DNA of 63,927 nt, the filler included, from Hausera hauseri (Eukaryota), in NCBI GenBank assembly GCA_046269625.1. It is 11 parts of 11 records of this genome, joined end to end, with 100 filler letters (N's around TTAATTAATTAA, not from the genome) between each part and the next. Parts side by side here need not be neighbours in the genome. Positions count along the whole stretch, not along the records: positions 29,719 to 37,827 come from JBJURY010766540.1; 10 more parts are not named here. One strand, written 5' to 3'. Made by a program: the position numbers and the translations under genes. A model generated the notes under the pieces. It had not been told where the DNA came from and did no database searches. It saw only the letters and a program-made list of their open reading frames with translations. Position 1 is the stretch's first letter; each line of letters opens with the position of its first letter. Of this stretch, positions 19,453 through 48,459 are shown in pieces.

Positions 19453-19455
19453 AAG

Positions 19456-20784: not shown

Positions 20785-22550
20785 ACATGAGTCCCAATCC
20801 GTTCCGCAGATTTCCAGTTGATTATCAAATCACAGATTTACGATCTTTAATTTATGATATCACCACCATTTTCGGTATTAATCATGATCCTTCTGCAATT
20901 AGACGATCAGACATATTACTAGACCTCGAACAATGTAAACAAGGATTTGAAGACTGTCAGAAAATACGTGATAGAGGTCAAGGAGAAATTAATTAAAATT
21001 GAAACGTTACAAACTGCATTGTTAGATTATAAAAGCAATACCTATGTCAGACTCAGTGGACAAGATGTTGAACGAGGAACGTTTTTTCATAGACACTGTG
21101 TACTGCTTCATCAGAATTGTGATTTTCCTCTACATGTTCCCCTTCACAAGCTCTATTCGGGACAAGCTGACTTCTTTGTTAGTTTTTTGTCTCAGCGAAT
21201 ATACTGCATTGTGTTTTGAACTCGGGTTTAGTCAAATCGATCCGAATACCTTTGTTTGGAAGCTCAATTTGAAGTTTTTTCAAACAATACTTAAAGTGTA
21301 ATCGAACACTTCATTGCATCAGGACAGTCGAAATGGCCAATCAGGGTTATCCTGCTTTGTTTTCACGGCGTTGCATGTCAGAAATCACAAGGACCATCTA
21401 CGGTTTTTACAGACCCTCATCTGCTATGTCCGTTGGAGAAACTGGTGCACGCGGGAGTAAAATTAATTGTGTATGAATTTGTCGGCGATTCTTATTCTCA
21501 TGTATCTTTGACGAATAACTTTTCTTTCTTCCCGTTGCTATTTTTTATCTGATTCCCAGCCTCCGTGCGTACATGTCTTGTCATACTTCCATTTCGCACA
21601 CCTCAAACTTCTATGCCCCCGCTGTACCCTCGTTTACAGCTTTAAATCTTCTACGACGTTATTTCCACCAATTTTCTGCCTTTGGATTAAAATTTGCTAT
21701 AAATTTGATAATAAGTTGAGCAAGACATGGAGCCAGTTTATTCTCCTTTCATTATTACCTCCCTTGATGATATCATTTGGGGATTTATCGAGATTCATTT
21801 ACCCGATGATTCTCTACAGTACTTTTCATCCCTGTTTCAACTCGAAATTCAATCTATTTATCAGCCAACCCCGCCACATTCCATACTTTCGGAATATCTT
21901 GCTGGAACCATCAATTACTCACAGAGCATTTTGATTCTTTTACATAACCGAATACACGTGGAACTGATAATGAAAGTTATGGATACTTCCGCTGTTACAT
22001 TGTTTTTGATTTTGTCCAATATATGTGGCGACTTGACGGGAATATACTTATTACCACATCCCATGTTTCTTGTTTCATATGTTAGTAACGGAGTAAGGAT
22101 ACGTGTATGGTTTCGCAGTACGCACAACAATGTTGTTGAGATTCTGGTATTTTTTGGTGATTTGGATTGGTATTCACCATCATTCTTTAGAATTTGGCGT
22201 TCTTTTGTACGTGTTCTCATACAGTCAGGTTCATATCGAAATTCTACTACGAAGGGAATGTCCACACTTTACCGAAAATTTTGTCAACGACATCTACTGC
22301 ATATTTAAAGTCTTTTATTCTTTCAACAATGCCACTGATTGACAAAGTTTCTACTGATACTATCCCGTTTATAGCTTTTCCTCGTGGCTTTATGTTAGTA
22401 CAATCGAAACAAAAAATATCTCTGGCTGGATCCACCGAAGGGGATCCGATCATCCCGGATATTTAGGTACATCACAGCGTGAGCAACTATCCAGCTGTAT
22501 GGACTATGTCAATGGATCCTACGCGACGACCCTTTACCTTTCCGTACCAC
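20785..22550 (+). other. Unidentified fragmented ORFs upstream of Ubl-Gag copy E (cargo position)
   Basis: Several short ORFs (e.g. 21044-21301, 21727-22308); no family recognised. Confidence 0.25.
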
Positions 22551-22569
22551 ACACTAGGGCTTGTGACAC

Positions 22570-25004
22570 CACTCTCGTTTTCCTTTTCAATGAATAACTC
22601 AAATACCAACATACAATATTAAATACCATACAGACTCACTGTACTTACACAAATATGTACAACATTTTACTTCTCTTTCAAACTTTTACTCAACTATTAA
22701 TACTCTACCACTCGTTAATCCCAATGTCCGAAATTTTTTCTCGCCTTCGACCACATATCTCGTTATCCATATACATTCGCGCATACGCGGTGGAATAGAC
22801 TCTTCACCTACCATTGACACCACTGACAAAGCTGCCTATAAACCATCACATTTTGTTTTTCACCAGAAATTAACGACCGCAACCACGCAATCTACTTTCA
22901 CTAGTTACATCTTTCATTTCGCCAGCCAAACACACTTCTTATCAGTGCACGGAATATTTTATCGATCGCGAAAAATCCAACAAAACCTGGCTCAGCTTTT
23001 ACAAACTTTGGCTGCAGTTTAATAACATTACTGATTCATTAGCAAAAGCTCATAGTTTACTTTGCCTCTTACCAAACATGATAAAGACTTCTCCTCACAA
23101 CATTTTAGATATTTCAACAATCCGACACGTACACACATCTCTATAACGCAGTCTTAAAACTTACCGAACTGTCTATGGATTCCATAATCCATAGATTCTT
23201 TAGTGATAATGCCGTGGACACACAAAAGCCTTCTGCGTTCCTACGTACGTCGTTGACTCACCTACAAACGCTAGGTGTAACTAGTCAGCATAATTCATAC
23301 ATTATGCGACAATATTTCTTAAACGCGTTGCCTATACAAATTAGGGCACTCCTTACCGTTGTCGAGGAATCTACGGCGTTGGATAAATTGGCGGAATTGG
23401 CTGATAAAACACATGAAGTGCTACAATTGAATTCCCAACGAACAATTTCCAACAAGCGACAATCAACTTTATACAACTATAGAGCAACAGTTGAGCCAAT
23501 TACACGCTGAAAATTTAGCACTACAACAGACAATAAATAACATTAATAATAGGTTGGGCGATCTTTCATTACCACGCGAACTGTTCCTATTCATAACCAT
23601 ACTCGTTCTGTTTTCAGAAACAGGTCACCATCGCCTACACGATCTTTTATGTGCTATTATCATAGCAAATTTAACAGTAAAGCTAATAAATGCTGTTTAG
23701 GGTGTAGGTATTACACTCCAAATTTACATTCAAACAAAATAGTTTGCATCTACCATGCCTAATTTGGATTCCACGCTCAGAAATGTCTTTCAGGCTGCAA
23801 CAATAAGAACAACGCTACCATTCTACCGACAGACGTTTTATTTCCCCTAGTAATAGTCGGCCGATCTCACCAATCCAAAAAAACTAATTTGGCCGGCAGT
23901 ACTCACGGCAGAGTCCGGCAAAAACAACTTCTCTAATACTACCTGCCGACACACTTCCTTTGCAATCTTTACACTAAAGGCTTCGATAAACACACCAAAA
24001 ACTCAATCCATACACTTCCTTATCGACGCAGGCGCTCCGGTTTCTCTGCTATCACTCACTTTCCCTGTACAAAATTTACCATTCAAAGCTAAATCGTTAT
24101 TTACGGCTTCAGAACAACCGCTAGACATTTCAGGTTTATCTACATTGTCGTTCACCTTACCAAACCTTCAGTTCACGTTTTACTGGACCTTTACCGTCGC
24201 TAACGTCCGCACAGCAATTCTAGGTTCGGATTTCTTATCGCACTATAATCTTTTAGTTGATTGCAAATAACAATTTTTGAAACGTAACACTACTGGATAT
24301 CCTACCGAACGAATAAATAGTATAGCCGCTAAGGCGCAAACGATCTTCCCGCGGAAGCCTATACTCAAAAATCATGTAAGTAATCCAAACTTCTTCAACA
24401 AGCATTTTTCATTTCGTAAATTTTTTAATGATAATATCGGTATTCAATCGAGATTTGGTTTTGATAACTACGATTGCGTTGGTTCAGTACATTCACTAGA
24501 CAAAATTACCTCTTCAAACACTACTTTTAATACTACTATCCTACACCAAATTCCCCTCAATTTCAATAACTCGCAAACATCACTCGTCACTGCACATATT
24601 GACTGAACACCACCAACATCACCAAATTTCTCTCAATTGCCTGTAAGTCTACGGCAATACATAAACACTTCATGCCCCCACTTAATCCAGAAGGATCAAA
24701 TCTTCACACCTGAAAACAACACTTTTCATCACATCATAACCCAACACCAAAGACCTATTCGGCAAAAGGTACGCCCATTGTCACCTTGTTGTAGGCAAGC
24801 AGTCAAAGCGGAATTTCTAGACCTTGAACGCTCCGGCATTGTACGCAGATCTAAATCACCGTGCTCTTGGTTTTTACACGTTGTCCAAAAAAGATGGATC
24901 CGTCCGACCTTGCGGTGATTACCGTCAACTAAACACTTTGACTGTTATGGATGCATACCCTTTACCATTAATTAAGGATATCCTGTACGGGCTTAATTCC
25001 ACTA
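22570..25004 (+). mobile_element. Ubl-Gag family copy E: Ubl (ends IHSRIRGG at 22794), gag, AAAAAAC frameshift, protease and RT start; truncated
   Basis: LVIHIHSRIRGGIDSSPTIDTTDK; YFLNALPIQIRALLTVVEES; tandem CYYH/CIYH knuckles; FLIDAGAPVS; [10 protein letters not shown]. Confidence 0.85.
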
Positions 25005-29718: not shown

Positions 29719-32105
29719 GCTAAATCGATCGTCGAATAAACTGAGGTAGTATTAAGTCGGTGCAATATGTCCTTGATTAATGGTAATGGGTATGCGTCCA
29801 TTGTTGTTAACGTATTAAGTTGACGATAATCACCACATGGTCTGAAAGATCCATCCTTTTTTGTACAACATGGAGAGGTGAAGACCATGGTGATTTAGAT
29901 CTACGGACGATACCTGATTGTTCTAGCTCCATAAATTCAGATTCTACTGCTTGTCTGCGTCGCGGTGACAATGGACGGACCTTTTGTCTTATTGGCCTTT
30001 GGTGTGTTGTAATTATATGGTGATAAATGCTATTTACTGGAGTGAAATTCCTATCTTTCTGAAGTATCCGAGGACAATAGGTATGAACAAATTGTTGTAG
30101 ACTTGAAGGTAGTTGCTGTAATGTTGTAACAGATGATAGATCAAGATTGCTAGCAGTACTTGATATATGATGACTAGTTGTTGGTGAGGAATCAGGTGGA
30201 GCCTGAAATAGTATTGTCTGGTCTGGAACCATGTTGGAGTAAGTGTTAGTGTTCGGTGTTTTAACAGAAAATACCAGATTGTTATTGAGATTAGCACGAA
30301 GTGTCGAGTGTTTTAAAATAGATGGCTTATTTAACGTGGACTGTGTTGTCGTTGTTATGCTGTCTATTTTTGTATTAAGGTTTTCAGATGTATTTGCTTT
30401 CAAACAGCGTCTTTTACAATCGACTAGTAAATTATAATGTGAAAGGAAATCTGAGCCAAGTATTGCAGTCTGGACGTTAGCGACTGTAAACGTCCAATGA
30501 AATGAAGAGGAAAAATTTTGTAAAGTGAAAGAAAGTTTGCAGGTTCCGGAGACACGGAGAGCTTGTCCGGATGCGGTGTATAATGGTTTTGCTTTAGATA
30601 AAGAATGTTGTACTGGAAAAGAAAATGGAAGCAGTGATATTACAGCACCAGTATCAATTAGAAAATCTACGGATTGAATATTAGGATTGGATATAGTAGC
30701 TTTTAATGTGAAAACGGCAAATGAAACGTGTCGACTAGAGGAGTTAGATAGATTGCCATTGCCAGCATCTGCCGAGAATACTGGCGGCGAAATCAGTTTT
30801 TTGGATAGGTGAGCTAGGACGGTTATTATTAGAAATGTTAATACGTCTATCGAATGAACAATTCTTGTTGGTTTTGTAGGTACAGCCAGTAATATAACTC
30901 CGAGCGTTAGAACCAAATTTTGCATGGTAGATACAAATTATATTACTTGAGTCTAAATTTGGCGAGTAATATTTACAACCTAAGCAACACTTATTTTTAT
31001 TGTTATTGAATTTAATGTGATAGTAGCAGATGAGGGATCTCGTAGGTGACGGTGGTCGATATCTAGAAGGAGAACGTTTTCGATTTGACGAAGGCACATT
31101 ACGACGCTGTAAAGAAAGATTATTCAGTTTTTTAGTGATAGAGTTTATGGTGTGATAGAGTGTCGCATTTTCGGTGCGTAATTCGCTTAAGTGATGTTCA
31201 AGTGAAACATTGTTAGTAGTAAGTGCTGCTGAAATAACTGGCTGAATGTGTACGTTCAGAACCTCATATGTTTTATCCTCCAGTTCGGCCAATTTATCTA
31301 GTGTTGTCGATTCTTCAACGACAGTGAGTAAGGCCCTAATTTATATAGGCAATGCGTTCAAGAAGTACCGTCGCAAAAGATCGGCGTTATGTTGTTTAGT
31401 TACGCTAAATGTTTGTAGCTGCACGAGTGAGGTTCGGAGGAAATCAGATGGTTTTGCGCCCCCACCGCATTGTCATTAAAGAAACGGTGAATTATTGAGT
31501 ACATAGATGGTTCGGTAAGTTTCACAACAGCGTTATAAAGATGCCTGTATGGATCAGGTTTCTGGAAGATATAGAGCAAATCATGATTTGCCATTTTTAC
31601 CGTAGTTGGAAGAAGACAAAGCAGGTTATGGGCCTTGGTTACTGGATCGGTGATATTGTTTGATTGTAGCCATAGTTTGTGGAAGCTAAGCCACGTTTTG
31701 TTAGACTGTCCATGGTCAATAAATACTCTGTGCACTGAGAAGTGTGTTTGACCGGCGAGGTTGTAGAAATATAATTACTAAAAGACGGCGTGGTTACGGT
31801 CAATGGTTTTTGTTGAAAAGGAAAATGTAATGTTTTTTGAGTGTTTTTATCAGTAGTATCGATGGTGGGGGAAGAATTCATCCCACCACGTATGCGAATG
31901 TGTATGTGTAAGATAATACAATTGTTTGAAGGTACAGAGAGGTTGCGAAGTTTGGAATTAGTTATTGGTATATTATTATGCGTTAGATAAAACTCAGTGA
32001 TGTTGAAGGCGTGTAGTGTGTAGTTGTGTAGGTAGGATGCATCTATCGAATTTATCATTCTGTGTGCAGTAAATGTTGATTGTTTAGAAAGAAAAGGAAA
32101 GAAAT
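29719..32105 (-). mobile_element. Ubl-Gag family copy G: Ubl (ends HIRIRGG at 31882), gag, AAAAAAC frameshift, protease and RT start; truncated
   Basis: FYLTHNNIPI...LHIHIRIRGGMNSSPTIDTTDK; CYYHIKFNNNKNKCCLGC and CIYHAKFGSNARSYITGC; LIDTGAVIS; [10 protein letters not shown]. Confidence 0.85.
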
Positions 32106-32147
32106 ATTCGGTGTAAATTCAAGTGTTTGGTGTGGTAACGAAACACA

Positions 32148-32876
32148 TCATTGCGTGGGACTCGTTGATGTAGGACAGAAGATTGAGTGGCTTATTATGT
32201 CATGGTTTGTTTGTAGCTCAAAAGTGTGCGATAAGTTGACTACTTCATTAATTTCTATGTCGCCATCATCAAGTTTGCGAATTCTTGCGAGTGCAAGGTA
32301 TCTTGGAAAATTATGTAGTGGATAAATAATTAAGTGAAACAACGATGGAATAGAATAGACGAAATTTATCACCTGAGGATTAAAGAAAAAAAATGTTTTG
32401 CTGAAATTATTTAGAATTCCAAAGGTGGCAGGAGTCCTATCAGAATAATAGCAAAATGTGTTAACTAAGGGCGCCTTCACTGGATGAAAGTTGCGGTTCA
32501 AATATAAATCTTGGTATACAGTAACTTTACGAATAAAATCATTCAAATATGATGCATCGGTACAATGTGTGACTTTGATAGTATATATCAAGTTGTTAAT
32601 AACAAAAAGGTATATGGGGAAAGGCATGGACAAACGGCAAGTTAGATCGTGAGGTATCTCCTGATAGATTGCCTCGTGGTATGTCAAAGTACGTTTAGTT
32701 TCGTCTGTATTTACAATTGCGAATGTGGTAAGAACTACCGGCCCATTATTTACGACCTGTTCAATAATTTGTGTTTTGGAGGACCCTTTGTAATCGTCTG
32801 TACCTGTCTGGATACGTGGCGTGTCGTGTGAGAAACCAGTGTTATGTATGTAGCGTGGAAATCTATGACGACCCAA
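32148..32876 (-). CDS. Cargo ORF containing a second Ubl-like repeat; in frame with the start of the Gag-proximal Ubl across one TGA
   Basis: IYLFVINNLIYTIKVTHCTDASYLNDFIRKVTVYQDLYLNRNFHPV resembles FLFFLNNQHLLHT..INSIDASYLHNYTLHAFNITEFYLTHNNIPI. Confidence 0.5.
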   Translation of the reverse strand: MGRHRFPRYIHNTGFSHDTPRIQTGTDDYKGSSKTQIIEQVVNNGPVVLTTFAIVNTDETKRTLTYHEAIYQEIPHDLTCRLSMPFPIYLFVINNLIYTIKVTHCTDASYLNDFIRKVTVYQDLYLNRNFHPVKAPLVNTFCYYSDRTPATFGILNNFSKTFFFFNPQVINFVYSIPSLFHLIIYPLHNFPRYLALARIRKLDDGDIEINEVVNLSHTFELQTNHDIISHSIFCPTSTSPTQ

Positions 32877-32927
32877 TCTCGCAGACCAATCAGTAGGGTT
32901 GTTTCTGATGCCATTTGTTCTAAATGA

Positions 32928-34382
32928 TCATTTATTAAAAATATCGATGAAAGTAAGATTTGCTACGAGAAACAATGATAAAAAAGTCGCGGATACAATA
33001 ATTTCGTCAAAATGATTAGACAGAACTCTAACAAAAATTACAACACATCCAGGGACGTTGATGAATTTCTTTAGAAGGTGTATGGAAGACAAAGCATGAT
33101 GATCATGGAACATGAAAAATCCCATCATAAATGATGTCTGTTTGTAATTTGACATAACTTTGCAACAGTTAAAATAATAATTTTCGCACAAAATGAGGTT
33201 TTCGTCATTGGAATTTATAAATAGTTGAAAACCGTAACTTTTCCATTGTTCAAAATGCGAAATATCGACCATAAGTTTAAGTAAATTAAATAACGTCAGG
33301 GAATAAACAGAAAGCTAGGGCGCCAAATTATCTGCTAATAGAACATCATTCATAACGATGATGGGACGACGTCATCTGGCTAGAACTACACATATTTCCT
33401 TCGGATATACGATAGTTATGTAAGTTTGACTGTACACGTGGTATGAAAGCTGGGTGCAGTTTCCGGAATTTGACTCCCGTGATGAGAAATCTTTAAAACT
33501 TTCAATGTTTGATCCCCTTAAAACCATTATCATTGTAGTTGTAGTTTTTATAAGCTGTGTTGACTTGGGAACAACTATTTTGTTAAAGGACTGGGACTTT
33601 GAATTATAGAAAATGTCCCCTTGATTGCAGATAAAAAACTTTAAGACATTTCTTTCCGGTATTGTTCTTAAAGGGATACAAGATACCAGCAAGATAAATA
33701 TATCGCTGTGAAATGCAAGATTTATTGAATCATAAAAAATCGATACAAAAACCGAACAAATGATCTGCAAATATCGTTGACCATACTTTGTTGCTGTCTG
33801 TGCTCCAGAGAACCCATTCACTACCGCTATGCAAAACAAATATGGAATCAATGATAACTTCCTTATTATTTAAACAAAGGGAGTCTGTCATTTTTTTCCA
33901 TAAATATTAAAATCACACAGAATAGTAGCGTAGTTAATTTCACATACAATGATGGTCCCCGATAAGTTAGCTGATGTTGATTTCAGATAATACTGCCTTT
34001 TTAGAACATGATAATAGTTTTTAGATGACCGTTTTACCAAGTGAACATTACTTTTATGCATTTCAATTTTATAAATTTGTAACAAAATTCCAAATGCAAA
34101 AGCCTCCCCAAGGGTAAAATTTGTCAATTTACCGTGATTTAACTGTTCACACTCCTTCAATGTTAGTTTCAACCCAGCATGCAAACTGACATTATACGGT
34201 GTCAAACTAACAATTTTCCTGACGTGGTGTAAAAATGCTTCAGGGTCATTTGTATTTACGTGAATCACTGACGTGTTTACAACGCTCGCCACATCAGCGC
34301 AGTATGGCAATGTACGAACCATTCGAAGATTAGTTGTAAATCCAAAACTACTAATGCGTCTATGTACATAAGATTGTGACAT
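32928..34382 (-). other. Three co-oriented hypothetical ORFs (32928-33272, 33372-33851, 33888-34382)
   Basis: ORF track only; tightly packed on the same strand as SET and gag; no family recognised. Confidence 0.3.
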
Positions 34383-34632
34383 TTCACTACTTACAAAACC
34401 GCGGAAGATGATGTGTCACGGGGCAATGTTGTGTCGAAGTACGTGTCAATTATATAATAGACAGATAAATAAGGGAAAAGGGGGTAAGAAAAATGGTAAA
34501 TAAAAAATGAATAAAAAAGCATTTGTCGAATGAACAATGTATAATGGTGGATCTCACCTTATCGTGTACCCTTTTCTCCATGATCGGTGGTATTGGGTTA
34601 GTTTTCGATATAGACAATGCAAAGGTTTTACA

Positions 34633-37080
34633 TTAAACGTTTGCGTCGAACAAGTTCTTTAAAATATGTTCAAATCTGGATTGTAATCCATTGATATAAT
34701 TCATTAAATAGCATTTGCTTTCGGGACCAATAGTGTAGGTTTTTGAATCAACAGTTTCATGGATAATAACGTGAGATATATTATTTATATTGTTCAATTT
34801 CACTGTTTTTTCGCTTACTAATATAAATTGAACGGAACTCTTCCGGATTTGACAATCTTTGAATACTATTTCAGGATTATTTAAACTGATATTAACAGTA
34901 AACTCCGGTGCACTTTTTACCTTAGGTATGTAAAACTTTTCCATTTCCGTCGAAAAAGCATTTCTGAGGTTCACGGCCAAATCTTTTACTTGCAATTCAA
35001 TTTCACTGATCGGTTCATTTGATTCTAATAAACTGAACGTTATATTTCCGTCTTCGTCTGGCGATCTTCCATCAGTTATGGAACTTTTATCCTCATCATA
35101 CTCAGCATCGGATGAACTTTCAGCCGCGTTTGTTAATTGGTAACGTGGATTATCAGACCAATGTTCGATGACTTTCAAAACAAATCCACCGGAATCCAAT
35201 AAAGCTCGTTTCGAAAGTTTTAAATGTTGAATACATTCTAAATAACGCAGTTTGAAAGACCAATCATTCCAAGAAATACTATCTAATTTGACCGTAATCA
35301 AATTGACACCTCCGCACTCAACGAACTTCCGAATACAATTATCGGACTCCGTTCTCAATAAAACGTCGATCAAATTGAAAAATGATTCATTTTCCAAACA
35401 TTCATCCTTCAGAACAGTAATCAATTCGGAAACGTGATTGGTTTCTTTCAAAGAATTTCGCAAGGTAATTTTGTTAATGAGATCTTTACGTTTTCGACTT
35501 TCAGACTTTTGGATTTGGTCTCGGAGTTTTTCGTTGGGTTTTCCAAGCAGTCCAGTGCAATTATCGCTACCGCAAAAGCATTTTTGTTCAGTCGTTCCAT
35601 ATTGTTGGAACTGATAATCGATAGTTATCTCTTCGTTTTCTTTTATGTATCTTTTGGCGAAAATCCCGATACGGGTTTTTCCATTGACGACCCATCTTTC
35701 CAAAATGGTATTCGGATTGCATGAGTGATTGACAAATCTTGACCAGTTACCTTTGATACCAGCATCGATGAAGAGATCCTTTTGCATGGACATAATAAAG
35801 TGATTGTTGTACGTTGTTTCTTGATTTATTCTATTGGTAAATTCGTTGAAATCGATAAGTTCACCGACATATTCGATTATAAACGCACCGATTGAAATCG
35901 GATTGACAGCTCGAATACCCCAACCTTTTTCTGGACCGCAATAAAACGTCTCTATTTGGGCGTATGACTGTTCTTGGAAACGTCGATTTGTACATATACC
36001 ATACACAGGACAATTTCGATTACATTCAATTTTCACCTTACGATTAAAACAATTCTCGTCGCAAGCCGCTTTGCCCAATTGGATTTCGTCCGGGTCTGGT
36101 GGAGTACAACTGCAAGCGGTACTTCTCAGATAAAAATATTCGAATTTCTTCCCGATTGCAGATGGATGAATCTCTGTTTTAACAATGTGTTCATATATTG
36201 GTCTTTCAACGTCCGGGTATTTGGCAAATGGATCACAACTGTCATCATCGTTGAATTCAAATTCTCCACAAGAACTGAGATCATCTTTATCAGATAGAGC
36301 TTCACTGATTTTGATGCTGTTGTTTGTTTTGGTTGAATTCGAAATACCGTCGACGTCCAATACCTCATCGATCTCAACTGAACTAAACGATGAACGTAAC
36401 GTCGAATCGCGTATATTCTCATTATGCGTATTATTCAAATACAAATCATTCATAAATGAAATACGCGAATCTAAGTTATCCATATACTTATTTGGAGTAA
36501 CAATCGAGTTCGCATCATTCGCATCGACCTGTTGACATGGAACTGTAATCAATTTTTGAATATGAGAAACAACATCACTTAATCTTTGCTGATTATTGTA
36601 ATTCTCAGATTGGGAGAAATTGTTACAATGGTTATTCATATTTAGCTTTTCTGAAAGACATTGATAATCATAAGAAGGACCACTTGTACTCATTTGACAT
36701 GAAACAAAATTGTTAGGCTGAGGATAAAATGCGTTCACGTATGATGGTTGTTCAAATGTTGGTAACATACGTTGAGTTGAATTTGGAAGAACTGTATTTG
36801 TCAGGTTTTGAATATTGTCATGGAAAGGAGGTCTGAAGAGAGACTGTTTGTAACACGAATAAAAATCTGTGGCATTTGATTGAAAGACATTTGGTGAGGA
36901 GTAAAGATTATCAAAACAATTATTAAAAAGAGATGTGTTTACAAGTGTGTTTATTGGGACTTGATTCAGTGAATTGAGTTTATCATAAGGCGAAACTGAG
37001 TTGGAATTTAATGAACTCATCATAAAATAAATGGGATTGAAAGGATTACGATTGTCGCCGGATAAAATAGTATGATTCAT
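34633..37080 (-). CDS. SETD2: SETD2/Set2-like histone H3K36 methyltransferase, intronless, with no recognisable WW or SRI domain
   Basis: AWS (CSC...CDENCFNR..KIEC...CTNRRFQ), SET (KGWGIRA, EYVGE, GNWSRFVNHSCNPN, EEITIDY), post-SET CFCGSDNCTG, then a SETD2-like helical domain and FYIPK motif. Confidence 0.85.
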   Translation of the reverse strand: MNHTILSGDNRNPFNPIYFMMSSLNSNSVSPYDKLNSLNQVPINTLVNTSLFNNCFDNLYSSPNVFQSNATDFYSCYKQSLFRPPFHDNIQNLTNTVLPNSTQRMLPTFEQPSYVNAFYPQPNNFVSCQMSTSGPSYDYQCLSEKLNMNNHCNNFSQSENYNNQQRLSDVVSHIQKLITVPCQQVDANDANSIVTPNKYMDNLDSRISFMNDLYLNNTHNENIRDSTLRSSFSSVEIDEVLDVDGISNSTKTNNSIKISEALSDKDDLSSCGEFEFNDDDSCDPFAKYPDVERPIYEHIVKTEIHPSAIGKKFEYFYLRSTACSCTPPDPDEIQLGKAACDENCFNRKVKIECNRNCPVYGICTNRRFQEQSYAQIETFYCGPEKGWGIRAVNPISIGAFIIEYVGELIDFNEFTNRINQETTYNNHFIMSMQKDLFIDAGIKGNWSRFVNHSCNPNTILERWVVNGKTRIGIFAKRYIKENEEITIDYQFQQYGTTEQKCFCGSDNCTGLLGKPNEKLRDQIQKSESRKRKDLINKITLRNSLKETNHVSELITVLKDECLENESFFNLIDVLLRTESDNCIRKFVECGGVNLITVKLDSISWNDWSFKLRYLECIQHLKLSKRALLDSGGFVLKVIEHWSDNPRYQLTNAAESSSDAEYDEDKSSITDGRSPDEDGNITFSLLESNEPISEIELQVKDLAVNLRNAFSTEMEKFYIPKVKSAPEFTVNISLNNPEIVFKDCQIRKSSVQFILVSEKTVKLNNINNISHVIIHETVDSKTYTIGPESKCYLMNYINGLQSRFEHILKNLFDANV

Positions 37081-37927
37081 TGTTGAAGATTTTGATACGT
37101 ATTTATCACATAATGATTTGAAATTTGTTTTACCTCGACATGTAGAATCTGGAATAACAACACAATATGTTCAACAATTAAAATACTGTGCGTTCACTTT
37201 GAAATCCCTGTAAAATAAAGACCAATGGGATAAAATTGACCAAACTTGGCAATTTTATAAAGTATATAATGATTTTATCTCCGGAAAATAAGTAGTTCAA
37301 AAGTCGCTAACAGGTGGAAATTTAACGTATATTAATGACAGATTTTTATAAATACTAGTCATCATAATACAAATTCAATGTGCTGTGCTCTATTTTCCGC
37401 AACTATTTTAAAGTCCAAAGAATTTCAACTGAAGTGTCACGATTATTTCGGTGATAGCATATTTCAAATCTGTTGCGAAGTCAACGTCATTAATAAACCG
37501 TCGTTTTCCATCTGATAGTGACGTCTCAAACTATTTTTGCATGACATAAATCCCATAATTTCTTATATAATATTTCCAAGTTTGATAAATTTCGACCTAG
37601 TAGTCTTCATTTTACAGACGTTTCGAAGTGCAACTTTAATTATGAACACCCTGTATTTTAAAACCCATATAAACATATTTAACCATATACCATATAAAAC
37701 TGGAAAAATTATTTCTTAAAAAATCAATTATAGCGAACTTTGGATGACCTGCTTACGATAATTATGATTAATTATATACCCTCTATATCAAAAATCTGTG
37801 TGCATGATTAATGAAAAAGTTAGATGANNNNNNNNNNNNNNNNNNNNNNNNNNNNNNNNNNNNNNNNNNNNTTAATTAATTAANNNNNNNNNNNNNNNNN
37901 NNNNNNNNNNNNNNNNNNNNNNNNNNN

Positions 37928-40670
37928 TATATAAGGATGTGCAGCACAACTATGATTTCCAATGTATCAAGTTCCCTCCATCCATAGATGAAGTTAAAAA
38001 ATTTGAAAAGTCAACAACATGTCCATCAATATCTTGGGATTGGACGAGGATGATAAATTTTATCCCCTGCAGATATGCAATGCTGAATTGGAAGATCATA
38101 TGGATTTTCTGCTACTAGACGATGGAGAAAAGAAACATTATGTTTGAATCAAAGACTTTGAGCGGCTAGTCAGATTACAAATTACGAAACATCATGGGCA
38201 AATAGAAATATGTAAACGGTGCTTGTCCTATTTCAGTGACAGGTTAGCTGTGGAGAAGCCGAAGGAGCACAAGATGTACTGCAACAACAATTATTGTATC
38301 AGGCCAGATTTCCCCAAAGAGGACTACATTGAATTCAAGGAGTTCTAGAAGAATATCAAGGTCCCAATAGTTATCTATTGCGACTTTAAAGCGGTGCTGC
38401 ACCTAGTTCAGAGTTGCAGTCCTAATCCCCAACACAGCAGCACAACGTCATACCAATATCATGAGCTCTCATCATATTGCTTGTATGCCAAAGGACTGGA
38501 CAGTGAATCATATCTATTTAGAGGTCAAGGCGCAGCAGCTCATTTCATAAAGCGACTTGAAGATATGGCTCATAGGCTTGGCGATATGTTGCGGCAGCAT
38601 AAGGATACAATTAGCATATCGGAGCATTAAGAAAAAGAATGGTCCAAGGCAACAGCATGTTACTTGTGCGCCAAATCATTCACTAAGGGTAATTATAAAG
38701 TCAGAGATTATTGCCATTTTGCAGGCAAATATCGGGGCGCGGCATGCAACAACTGCAATCTGAACTGAAAAACATGTGCATATGTGCATGTAGTGTTCCA
38801 TAAGCTCAGTGGTTATGATTCCCATTTCATTGTTCGGGAACTGGGGAGCATTCAAGGAAACATTGATGTGATCCCTATTAGTGAGGAAATATACATCACC
38901 TTTACTAAGAATGTTTGGAAAATCAGGCTTCGCTTCATAGACAGTTTCCGTTTCATGTCGCCTTCACTTGACAGTTTAGTGAAGAACCTCCATGCAGAAG
39001 AACTCAAGGAGACGAAGCGGTTTTCCCCACTGCATTTGACCTAGTCAAAAGGAAAGGCGTCTTTCTCTATGACTATATAACATCATGGGAAACACTGGAT
39101 GATACCTCATTGCCGGCCAAGAAGGATTTTTCCAATATCCTCTATGATTGCGATATCAGTGATATGGATTACCAGCATGCTCAAAATGTCTGGCATTCAT
39201 TCCAATGCCAAACATTAAGAGAATACAGCGACATATACCTAACGACGGACGTGTTGCTTATGACGGATGTCTTTGAGTGTTTCAGGTATGTTACGATAAA
39301 AAACCATGCATTGGATCCCGCTCATTTCTTTACGGCTCCAGGGATGAGTTGGCAGCTATGCTGAGATATACAAATGTCAGGCTTCAGATCATAAAGGATT
39401 ACGACATAATATGCCAGGCAATCCACTGGTATAGTAGGGCCAACAACAAGTATATGGTCCAGTATGATCCATTTAAAGAATCCTCATATATATATCATAC
39501 CTGGATGCCAACAGCTTGTATGGATGGGCAATAAGTGCTCCATTGCCATATGATAACTTCAAGTTGGTTGAGCATCCCGAAGACATCCCTATACCGGACC
39601 TTCATCCCACTGAAGATACGGGTTACATACTGGAGGTAGATGTGGAATATCCGGCATCTATCCACACAAGGTATGAGCAGCTGCCATTCCTTCCTAGGAG
39701 CAAAAGACCACCGAATGGGGGATTAGAAAAATTACTGTATATGTAATCCACTACATAAATCTCCAGCAAGCAGTCAGAAATGGACTCGGGGTTATTAAGA
39801 TTCATCAAGCCCTGCAATTCATCCAGTCCATGTGGCTACAGCCATACATAGATCTCAATACCAAGCTGCGGACCAATGCCAAGAACGACTTTGAGAAGGA
39901 TCAATTCAAGTTATACAACAACAGTGTTTTTAGCAAGACCATGGAAGATATCCGCAACAGGATCAACATCAAACTAGTCCCTGACTGGAAGCGGGAAAAG
40001 AAGCTTATTGCCAAGCCCAATTTCCACAGCAACGTCATAAATGCGGAGAACTTGGTCAGCATCCATATGCTGAAAACATCCTTGAAATTCAACAAGCCCA
40101 TATATGTGCGTAGGGCAATATTAGACCTGGCAAAGACCCTGATGTACAAATTCCACTATGACATTACGATACCTAAGTTCGAGTCTATGCAGCTTATGTA
40201 TATGGATACTGATAGATTCACCTATCAGATCCATAGAGATGATATTTATAAGGACTTTGCCCAATTGGTGCATCACATGGATACCTCGGATTATCCGAAG
40301 GAACATCCCAACTATTCAGTAGCCAACAAAAGGTCCTTGGGAAATTCAAAGACGAGGTGAATGGAGCAATCATCTCGAGATTTGTTGCTCTTAGTTCCAA
40401 AATGTATGCCACTGATATATGTGGCGAAGTAAAGAAGCGGGCTAAAGGGGTTCAAAGGGCGACCTTAGCCAAGAAGATTGGCTTCAATGACTATGTTGGA
40501 GTTCTGCATGAGCAGACTCATATCATATCAGAGATGCGAAGGATCCAGTCTAGGGCTCATAACATTGAGACTGTAACATTACAGAAGAAAAGCTTAGATT
40601 GGATGGATGACAAGAGGCAGATCCTGGTGATGGAAGCCATACACTACCTCACGGACATGTGGCATTGTAA
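37928..40670 (+). pseudogene. polB: Protein-primed DNA polymerase B (Polinton/Maverick), copy 1
   Basis: EndoVII-like zinc motif (VRDYCHFAGKYRGAACNNCN), FHKLSGYDSHF, FIDSFRFM, DANSLYGWA, KLYNNSVF, YMDTD, SKMYA, DDKR; many stops and frameshifts. Confidence 0.92.
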
Positions 40671-41251
40671 ATATGTACATATTGTTATTCTTTGTTTAAT
40701 AAATCTTGTATAGAAATATCGTGTTTTCTTCTTGATCAAGTAATGTGGGATATAGAATAAGGCCAAGTAAAACTAAGTAACTAATATGTAGAATAAAGCC
40801 AACTAATTTCACAACACATTTATTTCATAACAATATAACTTTGGCATAACGCTAAACACTGTTTAATGTGTGTGTGTGTGCTTGTCTGTGCTTGTAGAAT
40901 GTAAGTAACCTGAGAAAAGGCATGGCTCAGATATATGTCCGTGTGTTTGCTTGGATGGGTGTATGTAAAATGCAACTAACTTGGGAAAATATATAGATCA
41001 GATATGTCTGTGTGTGCATGTGTGTAAAAAGCAAGTAATATTTAGCTAATATGACTAATATGCAGGTAATACACGGGGATTATGTATGTGATATATGAAT
41101 TATAGAATGTATTGGGTATGAAATACATGCAGCATATATGGGTAATCTACAGGTACTATATATGTAATATTTTTCGCAATATATCTAATGAAGATATTAT
41201 ATAGGTAACATATGTCCTATCAAAGCAGTGCATTTGAAACTAATCAATAGA

Positions 41252-43295
41252 TTAATGAATATGCTCATTAATACAATGTATCAATGCACTAATCAATACA
41301 CTAATCAATACTGTCTCAATGCTATGATTCCTAGATTGGATCCTTCGCATCTTGGATATGATATGAGTCTGCTCCTGCAGAACTCTCACATAATCCTGAA
41401 AACTGATCTTGTTGGCAAATGTAGCCCTTTGAACGTCCTTGGCTCTCTTTTTGATTTGACCACATATGTCTAGAGCATATATTTTAGATCTGAGAGCCAC
41501 AAATCTCAAGATTATTGCTTTATTCACCTCATCTTTGAATTTCCCAAGGACCTTTTCTGGCAATTGATTAGTTTGGATGCTTCTTTGGATAGTCCGAGGT
41601 ATCCATTTGTGAGCCAATTGGGCAAAGTCCTCATATATATCATCTGTATGGATCTTATAGATGAAATTATCAGTATCCATATACATCAGCTGCACGGACT
41701 TGAACTTGGGAACCATGACGTCATAATGGAATTTATACATTAGGGTCTTTGACATGTCGAGGATTGCCATACCCATGTATATGAGCTTGTTGAATTGCAA
41801 GGATTTTTTCAGTATATAGATGCTGACAAAGTTCTCAGCATATATGGTGCAGCTGTAGAAGTTGGGCTGAGCAATGAACTGCAGGGCTCTATTGATCTTA
41901 GTAATACGAAGTCCATGTTTAACTGCCTACTGGAGATTGATGTAGTGAACTACATACCCCTCCCTATTACCCATATGGCAGAGCAGCTTTCTATGCTTTC
42001 CAATGGGCCAAGGGCCGGTTCTCAGGGCGGAAACGCAGCTGTTGATGCCTTGCGTGTAAAGAAGCCGAATATTCTATATCTATCTCCAGTATGTATGCCG
42101 TATCTCCAGTGAGATCCACATCTAGTATAAGGATGTTTTCAGGATTCTCGACCCATTTGAAGTTATCATATGGCAATGGGGCACTCATTACCCATCCATA
42201 CTAGTTGTAGGTATTCAGATGTGATATATATGAGGATTCCTTTGTTGAGTTGAATTCGGCCATATACTTGTTGTTGGCCTCACTATATCGGTGAATGGCT
42301 TGGCATATTCCGCCTCTTATGCCTCTCTCGATCATAAAAATAACATCATAATCCTTAATGATCTGCAGCCTAATACCAGTATAGCGCAGCATTGCTGCCC
42401 AACTCATTCCTGGAATCATAAAGGAATGAGCCGGATCTAAAGCATGGCTCTTTATTGTAACATCCCTGAAACTCTCAGAGACATCCGTCAGCAGCAGCAC
42501 ATCGGTATGGAGATATATAACACTATATTCCCCTATTGCCTTGCATTGGAATGCATGCCAGACGTTCTGAGCATGCTGGTAGTCCTCATCACTTTTATCG
42601 CAATCAGAGAGGATATTGTAAAAGTCCTTCTTGGCCGGAAATGAGGTCTCATCCAGTGTTTTACTATGAAGTTATGTAGTCATAGGGAAAGGCGCCTTTC
42701 CTCTTGAGTAGGTCAAATGTAGTGAGGAAGTATCGCTTCGTTACTTTGAATTCTTATGCAGGGAGGTTCTTCACTAAACTGTTCTGTGAAGACGACATGA
42801 AACCAAAGCTGTCTATGAAGTGAAGTCGGATTTTCCCAAAATGCTCCGTAAATGTAATATACTTCTCCTTACTATTTTGGATCACCTTAATGTTTTCTTC
42901 AATGTTGCCTATTTCTCGGACTATGAAATGGGAATCATAGCCGCTGAGATTATGGAACACTACATGCACATATGTGCATGTTTTGCAGCAAAGATTGCAG
43001 TTGTTGCATGCTGCCCCTCGATATGCATCTGTAAAATGGCAGTGATCCTTGAATTTTCAATTTTCCTTGGTGAAGTACTTGTCGCACAAGTAACATGTTT
43101 CTGCCTTGCGCCATTTTTTTCCTGTCTCCACGACATGCTCATATTATGCTTATGCTGCTGAAGCATATTTTCAAGCTTATCAGCCATGTCTTCAAGTCTC
43201 TTCATGAAATGTGCTGTTGCACCTGGACCTCTGAAATGAAATAGATCACTGTCCAGTCCTTTGGAATACATGCAATACGATGAGAGTTCATCATA
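41252..43295 (-). pseudogene. polB: Protein-primed DNA polymerase B, copy 2, convergent with copy 1 and internally deleted
   Basis: FHNLSGYDSHF, FIDSFGFM, GIRGGICQA, YMDTDN, LGKFKDE, RSKIYA; closely similar to copy 1. Confidence 0.9.
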
Positions 43296-43395: not shown

Positions 43396-44900
43396 GACAA
43401 CGGCCATCAGTTCATCCTCACAATGATGGACCGTTCCTCGCGATGGCCAGAGGCTGTCCCGCTTCGGAGCACCAACACAGAAACCATCGCAGACGTTTTC
43501 ACCCGCACTTGGATCAGCAGGATTGGATCACCTCGCCACATCATTTAAGACCAAGGTCCACAGTTCGAATCCAACCTGTTTAAAGCTATTGTCAATCGAC
43601 TGGGAATTAACTACATTCAAACGTCACCATATCATCCTTAATTGAATGGCCTTCTCGAACGCTTTCACCGAACAATGAAAACGTCTCTCAATATCCTTGC
43701 TGAGTCCAATCTCAGTTAGACTACACTCCTTTCGTACGTTTTGCTTGGCTGGCGGAACACACCATTAACTTCTACAGGCTGTTCACCTGCAAAAACATTA
43801 TTTGGCACTTCCATTAGATCATTATTTGAGGTGACTGAGCTGGACAATACTCTTACAGACGAAACCATTCAAGCGGCACAGAGACACTTCCTTGAGATCA
43901 GCAGAGACTCACTTTGCAGATTGTTACACGCAAATAAACCATACATACCCGACGATTTATATACTGCCAAGTTCGTTTGGCTAAAAAATCAGACGCCGTA
44001 TGGCTTTCAACCTCATTACGTCGGTCCTTACAAAGTAATTCGTTTACACTCCCACAACATTATCATCATCCTCAAAGACGACAAAGAAGTAACAGTTCAC
44101 ATCAACAACGCTAAACCGGCTTTCGTCATTGACGATAGGTCTCCCATGGAAGCCACTTCTCCACCAATATCTTTACACGGCGTGCAGCAATCCAACAATT
44201 CACCTTCCATCTCTGCTCAATTTCTTAATCCACTTTCCCCTAAGTTTTCTCCCAAAACTTTTACTTTAATTTCTTCTCACAATTCAGCCTCTTTTTCCCC
44301 ATCCGATTTTGCACTTTCAAGCCTTTTCACACCTCTTTCATCTCCTCACAACAACCTGCTTTCTCCTTTTACTGTACTTCCTCCATCAAACATCACTTCG
44401 ACTTCACCAATCTCTCCATCCACCCCTTTCATCATTCCAACCTCTTGCACACCACCTTCCAACTACTTTCCTTTGACTTCTCCATCTTTGTACTCTCTTC
44501 CGTTTTGTACCTCTTCGCCATCATCTCTCTCTCTTCTCCCTCTACACCTTTCTCATCTTCGGCGTATTCTTTTTCCCTCTCTCCTGACGCATCACCTTTT
44601 ACTTCTTTTATTTCCACTTTGCAACTTCCTGTTCTCTCTACTTTTATCCCTATCTTCCTCCCTCTCTCTACTACTACCTCTGTTTTATCTTTTACTTCCA
44701 CTCGTTCGTCTAATTCAGTTCCAACTTCCACTCCAGTATTCGTCTCTCTTCTTTTATACGCCACTATATATTTTATCATTATGGAAAAATCAGTAGAAGG
44801 CACCCAACGTCTTGTCCACACTAAGACCAACTGACATATACATTGTTTTGTTTAGTGCTTGTTTCTTTCCATCTATTTTCGTCTTCATAGTTTTTACTTT
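43396..44900 (+). pseudogene. pol: 3' end of a Ubl-Gag family element: integrase core, GPY motif and S/P/T-rich tail
   Basis: MDRSSRWPEAVPL, ERFHRTMK, HYVGPYKV; direct repeat of 52230-53385. Confidence 0.85.
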
Positions 44901-44905
44901 GCCAC

Positions 44906-45110
44906 GGGGGGGGGCTGATGTGGTGCCCACAGAGGCCGGCGCCCTCTGGCCCATTTGGTTGGGAACGGCCGGGCCTCCGTTGCCGCCGCGTCGGGCTCAT
45001 AGGCGGGTCCCAATCTTCCGCTTCGAAACGGCACAATATGATCGTGGCGTTAAACAACAGACAGATAATAGCTTGGACGACGATTTTGCCCCTTGTGGTC
45101 TAAACAGTTG
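44906..45110 (+). repeat. PPT (G9) plus putative LTR starting TGTGGTG at 44919
   Basis: GGGGGGGGGCTGA|TGTGG follows the element's 3' end; abrupt GC-rich block; 3' boundary uncertain. Confidence 0.6.
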
Positions 45111-45172
45111 TAGTAGCTGGTGCTGCTGTAAGTCCTGTCAAATACAATTCTAAACCAAAAACGTTTACTGAT

Positions 45173-45970
45173 ATGGTATCGGTCAAACGCAACTCTGAAA
45201 CGAAACCGGCACTGGCACCGGCTCGCGAAAGTACCAATTCAACAATTGCCAAATCTGCATCGCCAGACTCAACAGAAATTTACGGTAATAACGCGTATGT
45301 TACTATTTACTTTTCCGGAAAACTTTATTCAAAAGCCAAAAAAACAAACAGTTTCAGTAGTTCAGATTTATCACAAATTCAACATTCACCCGAGACCCGG
45401 CCATGTTCTCCAACGAATTTCGACGTTCTCGAACAAACATCATCAACTGATAGACAGTTCAAATGCATTTTTTACAATAGTACTCGGAAGTCATTTCATC
45501 ATTTGCAAACGCATTATATTCGACATGGAATACGAAATCTCGGCGAATCAAATATCAAAGAATCAAATGGTGATCAGACTACCGATGAGACTATAATACA
45601 AAACTTATTATGGGTTTTCTTACCACAAGTAATGCCTAGTGACGTTCTCATTCTCCATTTCCCTCTTTGTGCTTATCACAGCCACCTTTTGAACAATATT
45701 GAAGAACATTTTGATGAATTTCATCCTGACAAAATGATCGATTATATCACATACAGATGTGCCATTTACCATAAAGTAGCGTCTTGCCGTCAGTTTATGA
45801 ACGAACATATTTTGTTAATCCACAACAAATTCAGCACGAATGATCTTGGTTCTGGTAAGCAGACAATTCAAGAAAGTAATGTTGATGTTCTAGAAAGTCA
45901 AATGCCACGATTTTCGTTGTCGGATTGTATTGTTCAAAAACCGTTAAAGAAAAGCAAAAAGCGACATTGA
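45173..45970 (+). CDS. Protein with degenerate C2H2 zinc-finger-like motifs
   Basis: FKCIFY...FHHLQTHYIRH; FPLCAY...IEEHFDEFH; YRCAIY...MNEHILLIH, each with a Cys substitution. Confidence 0.5.
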   Translation: MVSVKRNSETKPALAPARESTNSTIAKSASPDSTEIYGNNAYVTIYFSGKLYSKAKKTNSFSSSDLSQIQHSPETRPCSPTNFDVLEQTSSTDRQFKCIFYNSTRKSFHHLQTHYIRHGIRNLGESNIKESNGDQTTDETIIQNLLWVFLPQVMPSDVLILHFPLCAYHSHLLNNIEEHFDEFHPDKMIDYITYRCAIYHKVASCRQFMNEHILLIHNKFSTNDLGSGKQTIQESNVDVLESQMPRFSLSDCIVQKPLKKSKKRH

Positions 45971-46286
45971 TTTTCTATTGCAACTATGTAGCTAATTTTG
46001 TTTCTCTGTTTTTAGCTGACTAAAAAATTTTTTGTTTAAATTTTTTAAGTGTAAACAAAATAAAAAATAGTGCAAGATTTGGTTTAAAAAAACCTTTTAA
46101 CCATTCTGATTTTCATAAAGATTTTCAAAAGTGTCATTTTGGAATTTTGTTTTTGCTACTTTGACTTGATTTTAATTCGTACCAGCTACAATTGCCAAGC
46201 GGGATAAATCCTGTTCAGATTTTGATTTTCGTTACATAATTGCGAACGTTTTGAATTGAACTTCCTTTAGCCATATTTGTTTTTGA

Positions 46287-48000
46287 ATGAAATTTCAATT
46301 GAAAACTATCAAATACAGGATCTCCTCGGTTTTAATTCCTGGTTATGTGCGGGAGTGTGATTATTCAGTGAAGTCACCGAGAGAAATTCTCAATTGGCAA
46401 TATTGTTGTCTAACGAATTCTCCTATCTGGGTAAGCAAACTCCCAAAGATGTCATGTATTAATGTCACCGATGCGGTCAATTCTAATTTGCACGATGGTA
46501 CGATGCTTTGGTCCAACAAATGCACAGATTTCCATTTGTTATTCGATCAAAACGATTTTGGGCGATACGCCTACTGTTTGGAGCTTATTTCACTAAAACG
46601 CTTGATCTTGGATTTTACTGTCTTTTGTGAACGAATGGAGGATTGTTCAAAAGACTTACTCAAAGCAGGAAGTCATTGGATACATGAGCCGATGAATAAT
46701 AATTGGTGTCAGATTAAGGTAATATTCTTTTCCATTGTAAAATATAATGCTGAAGTTAAAATATTTGCATACTATTTGTTGGAGGCTTGTTCGGCATTTT
46801 CGGATGATATTTATAATATTTATAATATTTCGGATGATAATCCTACCCAAACTTCAACCCCTATAGATTCAAAACAGATTTTAATATTTTGAAAATATTT
46901 CGATCCTGTCAATAATTCAATGCATTTCGTTGGATGGGTATATTATGAAATTGCTTTTCAAGTTAGAGAACTATTTCCTGTTTTAAGAAAGCCTGTACAC
47001 ATCCGAAAATGTTCAGGTGATATCATGGGAAGAACGAGGACGAAATCTAACCGTGATAAATTCTAGTGAAAGCTTCATATCACCAATTAATGGAATGATA
47101 ATTATACTTGAGCCAAATGTCAAACCATCCTTATATAAGATCTCTAGGAGTGATTCCCCACAGTATATATAATACAGGTTCTCTTTCTTCACCAATTTTC
47201 AACGCGAAAGATTTCCTAGAAGATTTCCGACAAAAAATAGATGTAGAATTTATTAAAAAAATTTGTGAACTTACTTTTAGAGACATAAATAATAAACCTA
47301 GCCATATTAGAACAGTTATTCGTCTTTCACAGAATGCTAGGTACAGTGAGATTCTTAAATCTCTCGTTTTACATATTTATGTGGCTGACGTAGCTAAAAT
47401 TCAACTTTATAAAACTTCGGTACAGTCTCATAGATATAAAACCAAGCTTATTCCCGGTGATCCCGTCAGAACAACCTTCGACGGAACGTTAGGTATCTAG
47501 AAAATTCTCAAATTCAACAGCAAATTAATGTCATTCTTCCACGTGGAAAGCCAAATCAAAATGTGCCGTTAATTTACACAAATAATCAGCCTTTATCTTG
47601 TCCGACTGGGAATTTTCATTCTGCAAACTGTTACAGACGTCTCTACTTCCAATTATTAAAAATTCCAATTCATGAAGTCGAAGCTATGCAACAGTTTTGC
47701 TGTGTTTTTGTTGATATTCATGTTCAAGAACAAATGGAAATTATAGTAACTTTGCCTAAAATTGGAAGTGCATCAGATTTATTAGCTGAGGCTAAACGTC
47801 AGGCAAGATTAACAAATATAAATTCTCGTTCCTATCGACTCTTCGAGGTTGTTAATCACGGAATCATCAGTCTTATTCCATTGAAACGGAAAATATCAGA
47901 GTTGGAACCGAACGCCGAATCTTTTGGCACCGAATTGACATGGAGTCTTGATCGAATACGTGTATATCGTAGCAAACTGGAAATAACCCAGGTATATAAA
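46287..48000 (+). pseudogene. USP7: Intronless fragment of the USP7 C-terminal Ubl region (about Ubl2-4), no catalytic domain; in-frame stops
   Basis: QILIF*KYFDPVNNSMHFVGWVY...VRELFPVL; AKDFLEDFRQKIDVEF...PGDPVRTTFDGTL; LYFQLLKIPIHEVE...GSASDLLAEAKR...YRLFEVVNHGI. These are collinear with USP7 as recalled (MLFLKMYDP, AKEYFRDLYHRVDVIF, PGNPLRHNYEGTL, LYYQQLKM, GCVRDLLEECKK, LRLLEIV). Confidence 0.8.
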
Positions 48001-48459
48001 GTGAAAAGTCATTTAGATGAAATTTTACCGGCCGAATTAAATCATTATATTTATCGCAATATTGACAAAAATGATCATGCGGAAATCATGTGCCAATCGG
48101 AAGTTGTTCCTGTTGAGGAAATTGCCATTGAATCGGATAAAGGAAAATTGTCTGTTGGAATAAACTCCTTTACCAAATCGGACGATTCGAACAGAGTTGG
48201 ACATAAAATTGTCAGTCATGTCGCAATTGCGGCTAGCGTCGCACCTGAGACGCCTTTAGCAAAATCTGCCAAATTACAACTTGACGATAATACTGTTGGG
48301 TCTGTGGTCAACGCTGAACTGCAAGCGGGGTCCTCGGCTACCCAGCAGTTTGCGGCCCGTCACGGCGCGACTGAAGCCCCGGCCGTCCACCCTATGCCAT
48401 TGGGTCAAACGGCGCCGTTCATTGCCGCACTACGACACGCCCCAGGCCACACGACCCCT

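Follow-up and report, generated by a model that had tools for sequence, protein, structure and literature searches.

A SETD2-like reading frame beside a Ubl-gag Gypsy element in Hausera hauseri is probably a host gene joined to a repeat family that captured its 3' end

Contents of the locus

The window analysed here is a stretch of 63,927 nucleotides, filler included, from the Hausera hauseri genome assembly GCA_046269625.1, made up of 11 contigs with N spacers, and only positions 29719-37827 (JBJURY010766540.1), which hold the SETD2-like open reading frame (ORF) that is the subject of this report, are a single contig; contigs on the two sides of a spacer are not linked, because the spacers join them artificially. 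TTAATTAATTAA is found in 10 of the 11 contigs. Two public sequencing runs, X1 and X2, contain the stretch, with no RNA run among them. Read along the minus strand, the contig carries the SETD2-like ORF (34633-37080), four further open frames (32148-34632), a ubiquitin-like domain (Ubl) that opens gag and ends in LHIHIRIRGG (31639-32118), and a decayed Ty3/Gypsy gag (DUF7041-like, weak), protease (PR) and start of reverse transcriptase (RT) at 29719-31774. This agrees with the first-pass annotation, in which Ubl-gag followed the ORF, and gag itself is broken by two frame changes and one stop. The contig ends at 37827 upstream of SETD2 and inside RT at the other end.

The SETD2 reading frame and its domains

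The ORF encodes 815 amino acids from its ATG with zero internal stops, and its description as an AWS-SET-postSET gene with intact catalytic motifs is upheld by the reading frame, by Pfam and by individual residues. Pfam recognised SET (E=3e-23) and AWS (E=1.4e-4, under the AWS curated cut-off), and the seven AWS cysteines, RFVNHSC, the catalytic Tyr of DYQF and the three post-SET cysteines (CxCxxxxC) are complete. Human SETD2 was the best solved relative (HMMER, E=2e-66), aligned over aa 292-645, well beyond the catalytic domain. An AlphaFold model of aa 281-657, built from 39 sequences, has a predicted local distance difference test score (pLDDT) of 83 and shows a SET fold followed by eight helices; its top Foldseek matches were SETD2/Set2 in elongation complexes, with 377 columns matched to 9eh0_l, and a helical auto-inhibitory domain (AID) is present after the post-SET in this predicted structure.

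Domain searches, model and sequencing depth together mark aa 1-735 (34876-37080, minus strand) as the SETD2 coding part, of low depth and likely a single-copy host gene. Within it lie a low-complexity N-terminus, AWS (aa ~338-369), SET (386-490) and post-SET, followed by the AID (~520-645), an acidic insert (~651-700; 15 D/E versus 3 K/R per 50 residues) and the SPT6-binding core EKFYIPKV (714-721), which aligns to human EVYRIPKK with Arg replaced by Tyr; the remainder of the region would lie past the version switch described below. We take EKFYIPKV to be the start of human residues 2022-2130, an offset anchored on one residue number. The excerpted text of Walshe et al. (PMC12572195) names residues 2022-2130 the SPT6-binding region and reports that SET plus AID is inactive, that the short conserved motif alone gives no rescue, that the long stretch beyond this motif is required, and that human SET, AID and the complete SPT6-binding region without SRI reach ~50% of wild type in vitro. 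In yeast, trimethylation of lysine 36 of histone H3 (H3K36me3) is lost on mutating the motif's basic residues, according to an extract of PMC13228609.

As first annotated, the ORF lacks WW and SRI: neither Pfam nor a profile built from 12 homologue C-termini finds them in it, and the profile, which recovered control homologues strongly in two of five cases and weakly in one of five, finds none in six frames of the stretch. The first-pass annotation describes these domains as the tether of SETD2 to elongating RNA polymerase II; their loss need not release the enzyme from the polymerase, because the AID and SPT6-binding core are retained. In comparison with SETD2/Set2 (KMT3A), the ORF shares the AWS-SET-postSET order, zinc ligands, NHSC, catalytic Tyr, AID with acidic insert and IPK core, and differs in lacking WW/SRI and in having no intron in at least 2.2 kb.

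Relatives of the protein and the end of the gene

The closest relative was P0001, a 541-aa UniParc protein 57% identical to the ORF (the best of 76 matches and also the best among 13,927 representatives), after which came cestode and trematode SETD2s, 34-42% identical. A quick maximum-likelihood tree of 34 rows (IQ-TREE) joined the ORF and P0001 with a support of 100 on a long branch, sister to the Neodermata SETD2s with a support of 95, so that on sequence the protein falls with SETD2, inside the flatworm group, and not with NSD/ASH1. The tree thereby points to a flatworm as the host, and, taken with the AT-rich sequence, perhaps to a triclad. Among 87 columns in which at least 90% of 37 other homologues agree, the ORF deviates at 23; 13 of these deviations are identical in P0001, five are an alignment artefact at the query's cut end and the five that are specific to the ORF are mostly conservative. 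The residues that we take to correspond to human F1606 (channel-lining) and to R2024 of the SPT6-binding region are Ile and Tyr respectively in both the ORF and P0001, the numbering being anchored on one residue. To judge from these comparisons, the protein is a conserved flatworm orthologue-like SETD2.

P0001 also ends without WW and SRI and lacks the first 240 residues, and the absence of WW/SRI may reflect incomplete gene ends in both the ORF and P0001. One tentative possibility is that the ORF represents a single large exon of an otherwise normal SETD2 gene, with the WW and SRI exons lying past an intronic element and the ORF end being read-through, which is compatible with the host origin argued for below. 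A splice-donor-like AAG/GTAAAA at 34921-34915, directly after FYIPK, points this way, as do the WW domains carried by seven of the eight named Neodermata matches, and P0001 is possibly a partial model because its first residues are also missing. Similarity to P0001, however, runs ~40 residues beyond the donor-like site, to the very end of P0001, with the homology of the two tails giving a score reached by one of 2000 shuffles; this weakens the case for an intron starting right after FYIPK, and P0001 likewise ends without these domains. We rate a true gene end without WW/SRI and one continuing in further exons as about even. The stricter proposal that this flatworm lineage's only SETD2 is intronless, has lost WW and SRI and is coupled to transcription via SPT6 alone seems doubtful from the sequences at hand; if true, it would offer a natural test of SPT6 binding alone supporting gene-body H3K36me3.

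Sequencing depth and a version switch at the border

Depth in X1 is summed contig depth and not copy number, and served only to compare regions that differ by a 30-fold step; X2, in which mostly gag-pol is represented, at ~1/120 of the X1 depth, was not counted as independent support. X1 depth was 3,100-20,700 over gag-pol (29719-31615), 700-2,300 over Ubl and just upstream, 97-168 over the frames between gag and SETD2 (32429-34596) and 3.1-5.7 in six of seven bins over the SETD2 body (35139-37035). Six long X1 contigs over the ORF body and upstream flank showed 0-2 differences, and nothing in X1 pointed to a second SET-domain copy at 85% likeness. Amplification of the element does not extend to the catalytic domain. 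The earlier observation that no clear long terminal repeat (LTR) separates SETD2 from gag holds, in that no X1 bin between them had the depth peak expected from a shared LTR.

The 3' segment of SETD2 (34633-34988, minus strand) occurs additionally as multiple copies that have diverged and in part decayed, with depths of 27-61 in nine bins over 34610-34978, and at 40-base resolution the multi-copy zone extends to ~34988, taking in the last ~120 codons of the ORF. These tail versions are 5-10% off the contig and include P719S, at an invariant Pro, and the main version has a stop at codon 733. Separately, a depth-2.9 X1 contig at 34533-34705, ~18% diverged and three bases longer close to where the ORF ends, is a candidate for the native SETD2 3' end.

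The change from the low-depth to the multi-copy version falls at a 22 bp shared stretch (34854-34875), a suspected misjoin or recombination point. Positions 34853-34903 are covered by three X1 contigs with depths of 21.3, 4.6 and 2.6, the last placed at ~34831-34918 by bin arithmetic. At 34876, 34889 and 34903 the stretch's letter was found in the depth-2.6 contig only, and at 34853 in the depth-21.3 contig only, the other two giving Ser743, as in P0001. Eight of the nine differences to the depth-21.3 contig lie in 34876-34948, and contigs of depth 24 and 27 are identical to the stretch over 119 and 248 bases downstream (367 in total); this clustering of differences gave a Fisher p of 5e-6 (0.035 inside a single contig). 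The ORF's last ~80 codons derive from the multi-copy version, and these codons, the stop, the missing WW/SRI and the gag link cannot be trusted as belonging to the native gene. The label 'single-exon' is shown for aa 1 to ~735 only, because the rest of the ORF lies beyond the switch.

Host-gene remnants between SETD2 and gag

Between SETD2 and gag, four same-strand stop-free frames of 128-259 codons cover 88% of 32148-34632; 300 mononucleotide shuffles averaged 1.5% and never exceeded 28%, and because the frames are more open than shuffles allow they are likely coding remnants. The packed same-strand ORFs first described here are therefore real as open frames, but at least one is a deletion-fused remnant of OGDH (2-oxoglutarate dehydrogenase) and not a gene. 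This remnant (33984-34367, minus strand, inside the ORF 33888-34382) comprises residues 441-488, 616-670 and 829-846 of the mollusc OGDH P0077, joined in frame by two deletions of 127 and 158 residues, and scores 196 against 32-35 for four shuffles; a search for longer relatives of this ORF found none. The next frame (33372-33869, minus strand) is 165 codons long, has no ATG start and belongs to no family; it overlaps a weak collinear match to the OGDH C-terminus at 33458-33348 (E=21), had no significant PDB match, and a frameshift-aware alignment did not carry OGDH into it. The remaining two frames, 128 and 259 codons from stop to stop (32148-33314, minus strand), lie within a multi-copy segment of depth 144-699, and the 259-codon frame had neither a Pfam family nor an Atlas match. 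For the three frames other than OGDH no family was identified, and Rfam gave nothing relevant.

TGGCGCCC at 33318-33325 on the minus strand, whose 8 nt match a tRNA-Lys primer site, had been flagged as possible evidence of a 5' LTR with its primer-binding site (PBS). The sequence is there, and ~0.005 occurrences of the exact 8-mer are expected by chance (more when all tRNAs are counted), but it is probably not a working PBS and was rejected as one: no CA lies within 3 nt upstream, hence there is no LTR end, and depth does not step across it. On the minus strand, two GGCGCCCT(T)AG words that are almost the same lie ~850 bases apart, at 32467-32477 and 33316-33325.

The Ubl-gag family and its sister copies

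The Ubl-gag family is also found on three other contigs of the stretch, and the RxRGG at the leader end is invariant in all four copies; the leader spans 31876-32118 on the SETD2 contig, and the others lie at 11443-11697, 22594-22800 and 48524-48679. The copy at 11443-11697 gave a beta-grasp model of low confidence (pLDDT 56) with ISG15, SUMO and ubiquitin as top Foldseek matches; sequence searches saw only the last strand of the Ubl, the rest being seen by this low-confidence fold alone. Such a leader might be cleaved from Gag by host deubiquitinases. Pfam matches to PR, RT and RNase H in the sister copies, with an integrase-like region next (tblastn to the element at 1323-5315), indicate gag and then the PR-RT-RNase H-integrase order typical of Ty3/Gypsy. 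No paired LTR was found on any contig of the stretch, and no target-site duplication was identified.

The copy at 20785-25004 is 67.5% identical over 1.5 kb to that on the SETD2 contig, and 1.2-1.4 kb upstream of its Ubl-gag it has a second OGDH remnant (20935-21621, plus strand), which differs in its deletion and contains two frameshifts as well as stops. Because this sister copy holds its own decayed OGDH, the capture is likely older than the ~33% divergence. Additional open frames of no known family also lie upstream of its Ubl-gag. Ahead of a third copy (48500-53385) lie pieces of the USP7 C-terminus (E=1e-13) and a frame with a weak likeness to zinc fingers, which come after the 3' end of another family copy, the two forming a tandem pair (43396-53385) with ~8.8 kb between equivalent points. 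From the first copy to the second, the order is a G-run (44906-44914) followed by TG and a candidate LTR from ~44916, a C2H2-like frame (45104-45970), a frame of no known family (46287-46892), the USP7 C-terminal fragments (47102-48200) and finally Ubl-gag-pol; the cargo is bracketed by inverted, GC-rich arms (44965-44996 and 48355-48386). For the fourth copy the contig ends ~400 bases upstream of the Ubl.

Sense-strand host-gene scraps thus precede gag in all three copies with enough upstream sequence, and incomplete fragments from at least two host genes, in sense orientation, lie next to LTR-element sequence and have been secondarily amplified. This matches LTR-mediated retroposition, the product of which is, in the portion of Tan et al. 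(2016; PMC5131818) consulted, partial, multi-gene and re-amplified cargo. A simpler neighbourhood effect, in which an OGDH pseudogene region following a host SETD2 was duplicated as DNA, segmentally or in tandem, and a Gypsy element inserted beside it with no capture, would account for a depth that declines stepwise between gag and SETD2 and shows no LTR peak, and for the lack of any identified LTR, PBS or target-site duplication. We consider it unlikely, as the OGDH remnants are co-oriented and 1-2 kb upstream of Ubl-gag in two copies that are only 67% identical, USP7 and zinc-finger-like remnants take the corresponding place in a third copy, and the remnants are intronless and fused in frame.

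Origin of the arrangement

The explanation that we favour, and judge probable, is that misassembly or recombination has fused a single-copy host SETD2 to a Gypsy family which took up the 3' end of this gene along with other mRNA fragments. A Gypsy element would have packaged host mRNAs, template switching during reverse transcription would have brought in fragments of SETD2, of OGDH and of other genes upstream of gag, and the captured pieces would then have been copied along with the element and decayed. The join itself may be the assembler crossing via the 22 shared bases with a short k-mer, which by our own estimate is somewhat the likelier route, or a real recombinant allele, which is not much less so. 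The native SETD2 would carry out co-transcriptional H3K36 trimethylation of host genes, with the AID repressing and SPT6 binding activating it, and with the SRI further downstream or none. In that case the SETD2 enzyme is probably not transposon cargo, and nothing indicates that a working methyltransferase is encoded by the element, since its copies hold only the non-catalytic tail.

Several points weigh against this explanation. The switch depends on a single diagnostic site in one depth-2.6 contig, contig differences can be errors and contigs drop rare variants, and the depth argument is limited in that X1 may be the source sample. One bin of the SETD2 body (36494-36764, in the N-terminal region) has an unexplained depth of 13.4. 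The uninterrupted 2.2-kb coding stretch is retrocopy-like. In the tree the branch of the ORF is 0.43 compared with 0.23 for P0001, and the ORF has more unique changes than P0001 for six of eight outgroups (lowest p 0.058), although the relative-rate test against P0001 was non-significant with each of the eight. Lastly, a 5' LTR of the element was not found on the contig.

Some of these points would suit an element that took up a whole SETD2 mRNA, which is intact here, as working cargo or after domestication, and survives as the tail only in sister copies, so that H3K36 methylation would be laid on the element's chromatin. The missing introns, the position on the gag strand, the lack of an LTR-like depth peak before gag, the longer branch and the SETD2 tail and OGDH sequence held by the family are all consistent with such uptake, and a functional enzyme in Gypsy has a precedent in the orchid AlkB described in the extract of PMC9289625. 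The depth, however, is lowest over the catalytic part, with no paralogue at 85% likeness; the version switches abruptly at the border; the architecture and the lineage-specific residues recur in the sister P0001; the ORF is intact next to a gag with two frame changes and a stop; and the 750 bases preceding the SETD2 ORF yielded no LTR. We regard whole-mRNA uptake as improbable, and slightly more improbable still, on the sequence, its specific form in which one Gypsy copy carries a complete, catalytically intact SETD2 retrocopy without WW/SRI, with the SPT6 switch kept, as its own H3K36 writer. An active element-borne SETD2 would be striking if true, and is unlikely.

The proposal in the first-pass annotation of a captured chromatin writer consequently survives in part, as host sequence including the SETD2 3' end does lie upstream of Ubl-gag, but the catalytic part has the lowest depth and is not amplified. 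Its further suggestion of an H3K36 writer serving the element is not borne out, because only the decayed non-catalytic tail is multi-copy and the version switches at the border; the alternative that it raised, an ordinary host gene, fits the low depth and the conserved flatworm orthologue better. A general caution for genome annotation is that, once a repeat family has taken up the tail of a host gene, the gene itself can end up stitched to sequence of that family and mimic cargo. The lead that we would pursue is a flatworm Gypsy family with a Ubl Gag leader and a pre-gag region that collects host mRNA pieces (the SETD2 end, OGDH, USP7 and a zinc-finger-like frame), OGDH being retained across Gypsy subfamilies ~33% diverged.

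Comparison with known systems

LTR-mediated retrocopies, including maize Bs1, as described in the consulted portion of PMC5131818, likewise consist of partial, sense, intronless pieces of several host genes that lie within an LTR element and are re-amplified as a family; here, in contrast, the cargo lies upstream of Ubl-gag-pol instead of replacing it, and OGDH occurs in subfamilies only 67% identical. Burro, the planarian giant Gypsy, shares host-derived domains, ubiquitin/SUMO-like and MATH/ubiquitination-related modules and upstream accessory ORFs, but the excerpt of PMC6431247 gives it an intact polyprotein of ~4,900 aa and more than 30 kb, compared with the short Ubl-gag plus pol and decayed cargo seen here, and the Ubl-gag family does not have the Burro features of a giant single polyprotein with env, BIR and BCL2 over more than 30 kb. 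The orchid AlkB Gypsy is a model of an LTR element in which an epigenetic enzyme of the host has become fixed, the kind of arrangement put forward in the first-pass annotation; in the extract of PMC9289625 the domain is found in dozens of consensus elements and is active in vitro, whereas the SETD2 catalytic domain here is not multi-copy.

The literature covered, consisting of listings and of portions of PMC3549883, PMC10915263, PMC6169894 and PMC11410931, described no SET-domain cargo in an LTR element, no such ubiquitin-Gag fusion and no planarian SETD2 structure, which is weak evidence of absence. Viral contigs scanned with SETD2 and with protease-RT contained no relative, and the sole match to a 21-mer of the SETD2 tail in a metagenome scan, on a bacterial contig (L003), was put down to chance.

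Other elements in the stretch

Upstream of the SETD2 start, the same contig contains an old MITE-like inverted repeat (MITE, miniature inverted-repeat transposable element) at 37195-37630, with arms of 77 and 44 nt that are 73-74% complementary; that this is not an LTR favours the reading of SETD2 as a host gene. Other contigs of the stretch hold frames resembling retroelements, Polintons and a fusion glycoprotein. A different Gypsy element at 1323-6871 has an open gag of 538 aa and a pol of 1167 aa, with Pfam matches to RT, RNase H and integrase. An intact 745-aa ORF at 12344-14581 has no Pfam family; its middle has an apparent likeness, judged by eye, to a DEDDh-type exonuclease. The pieces at 16555-20684 and 37928-43295 appear Polinton/Maverick-like by eye, with capsid-like and protease-like frames and two inverted, decayed DNA polymerase B-like copies that are 78-82% complementary, and Pfam was without match for the two of their frames that were scanned. 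Finally, two contigs at 53486-63927 combine gag-like frames with a weak match to a Monjiviricetes fusion glycoprotein (E=6e-4), an arrangement that recalls the env-bearing Burro of planarians.

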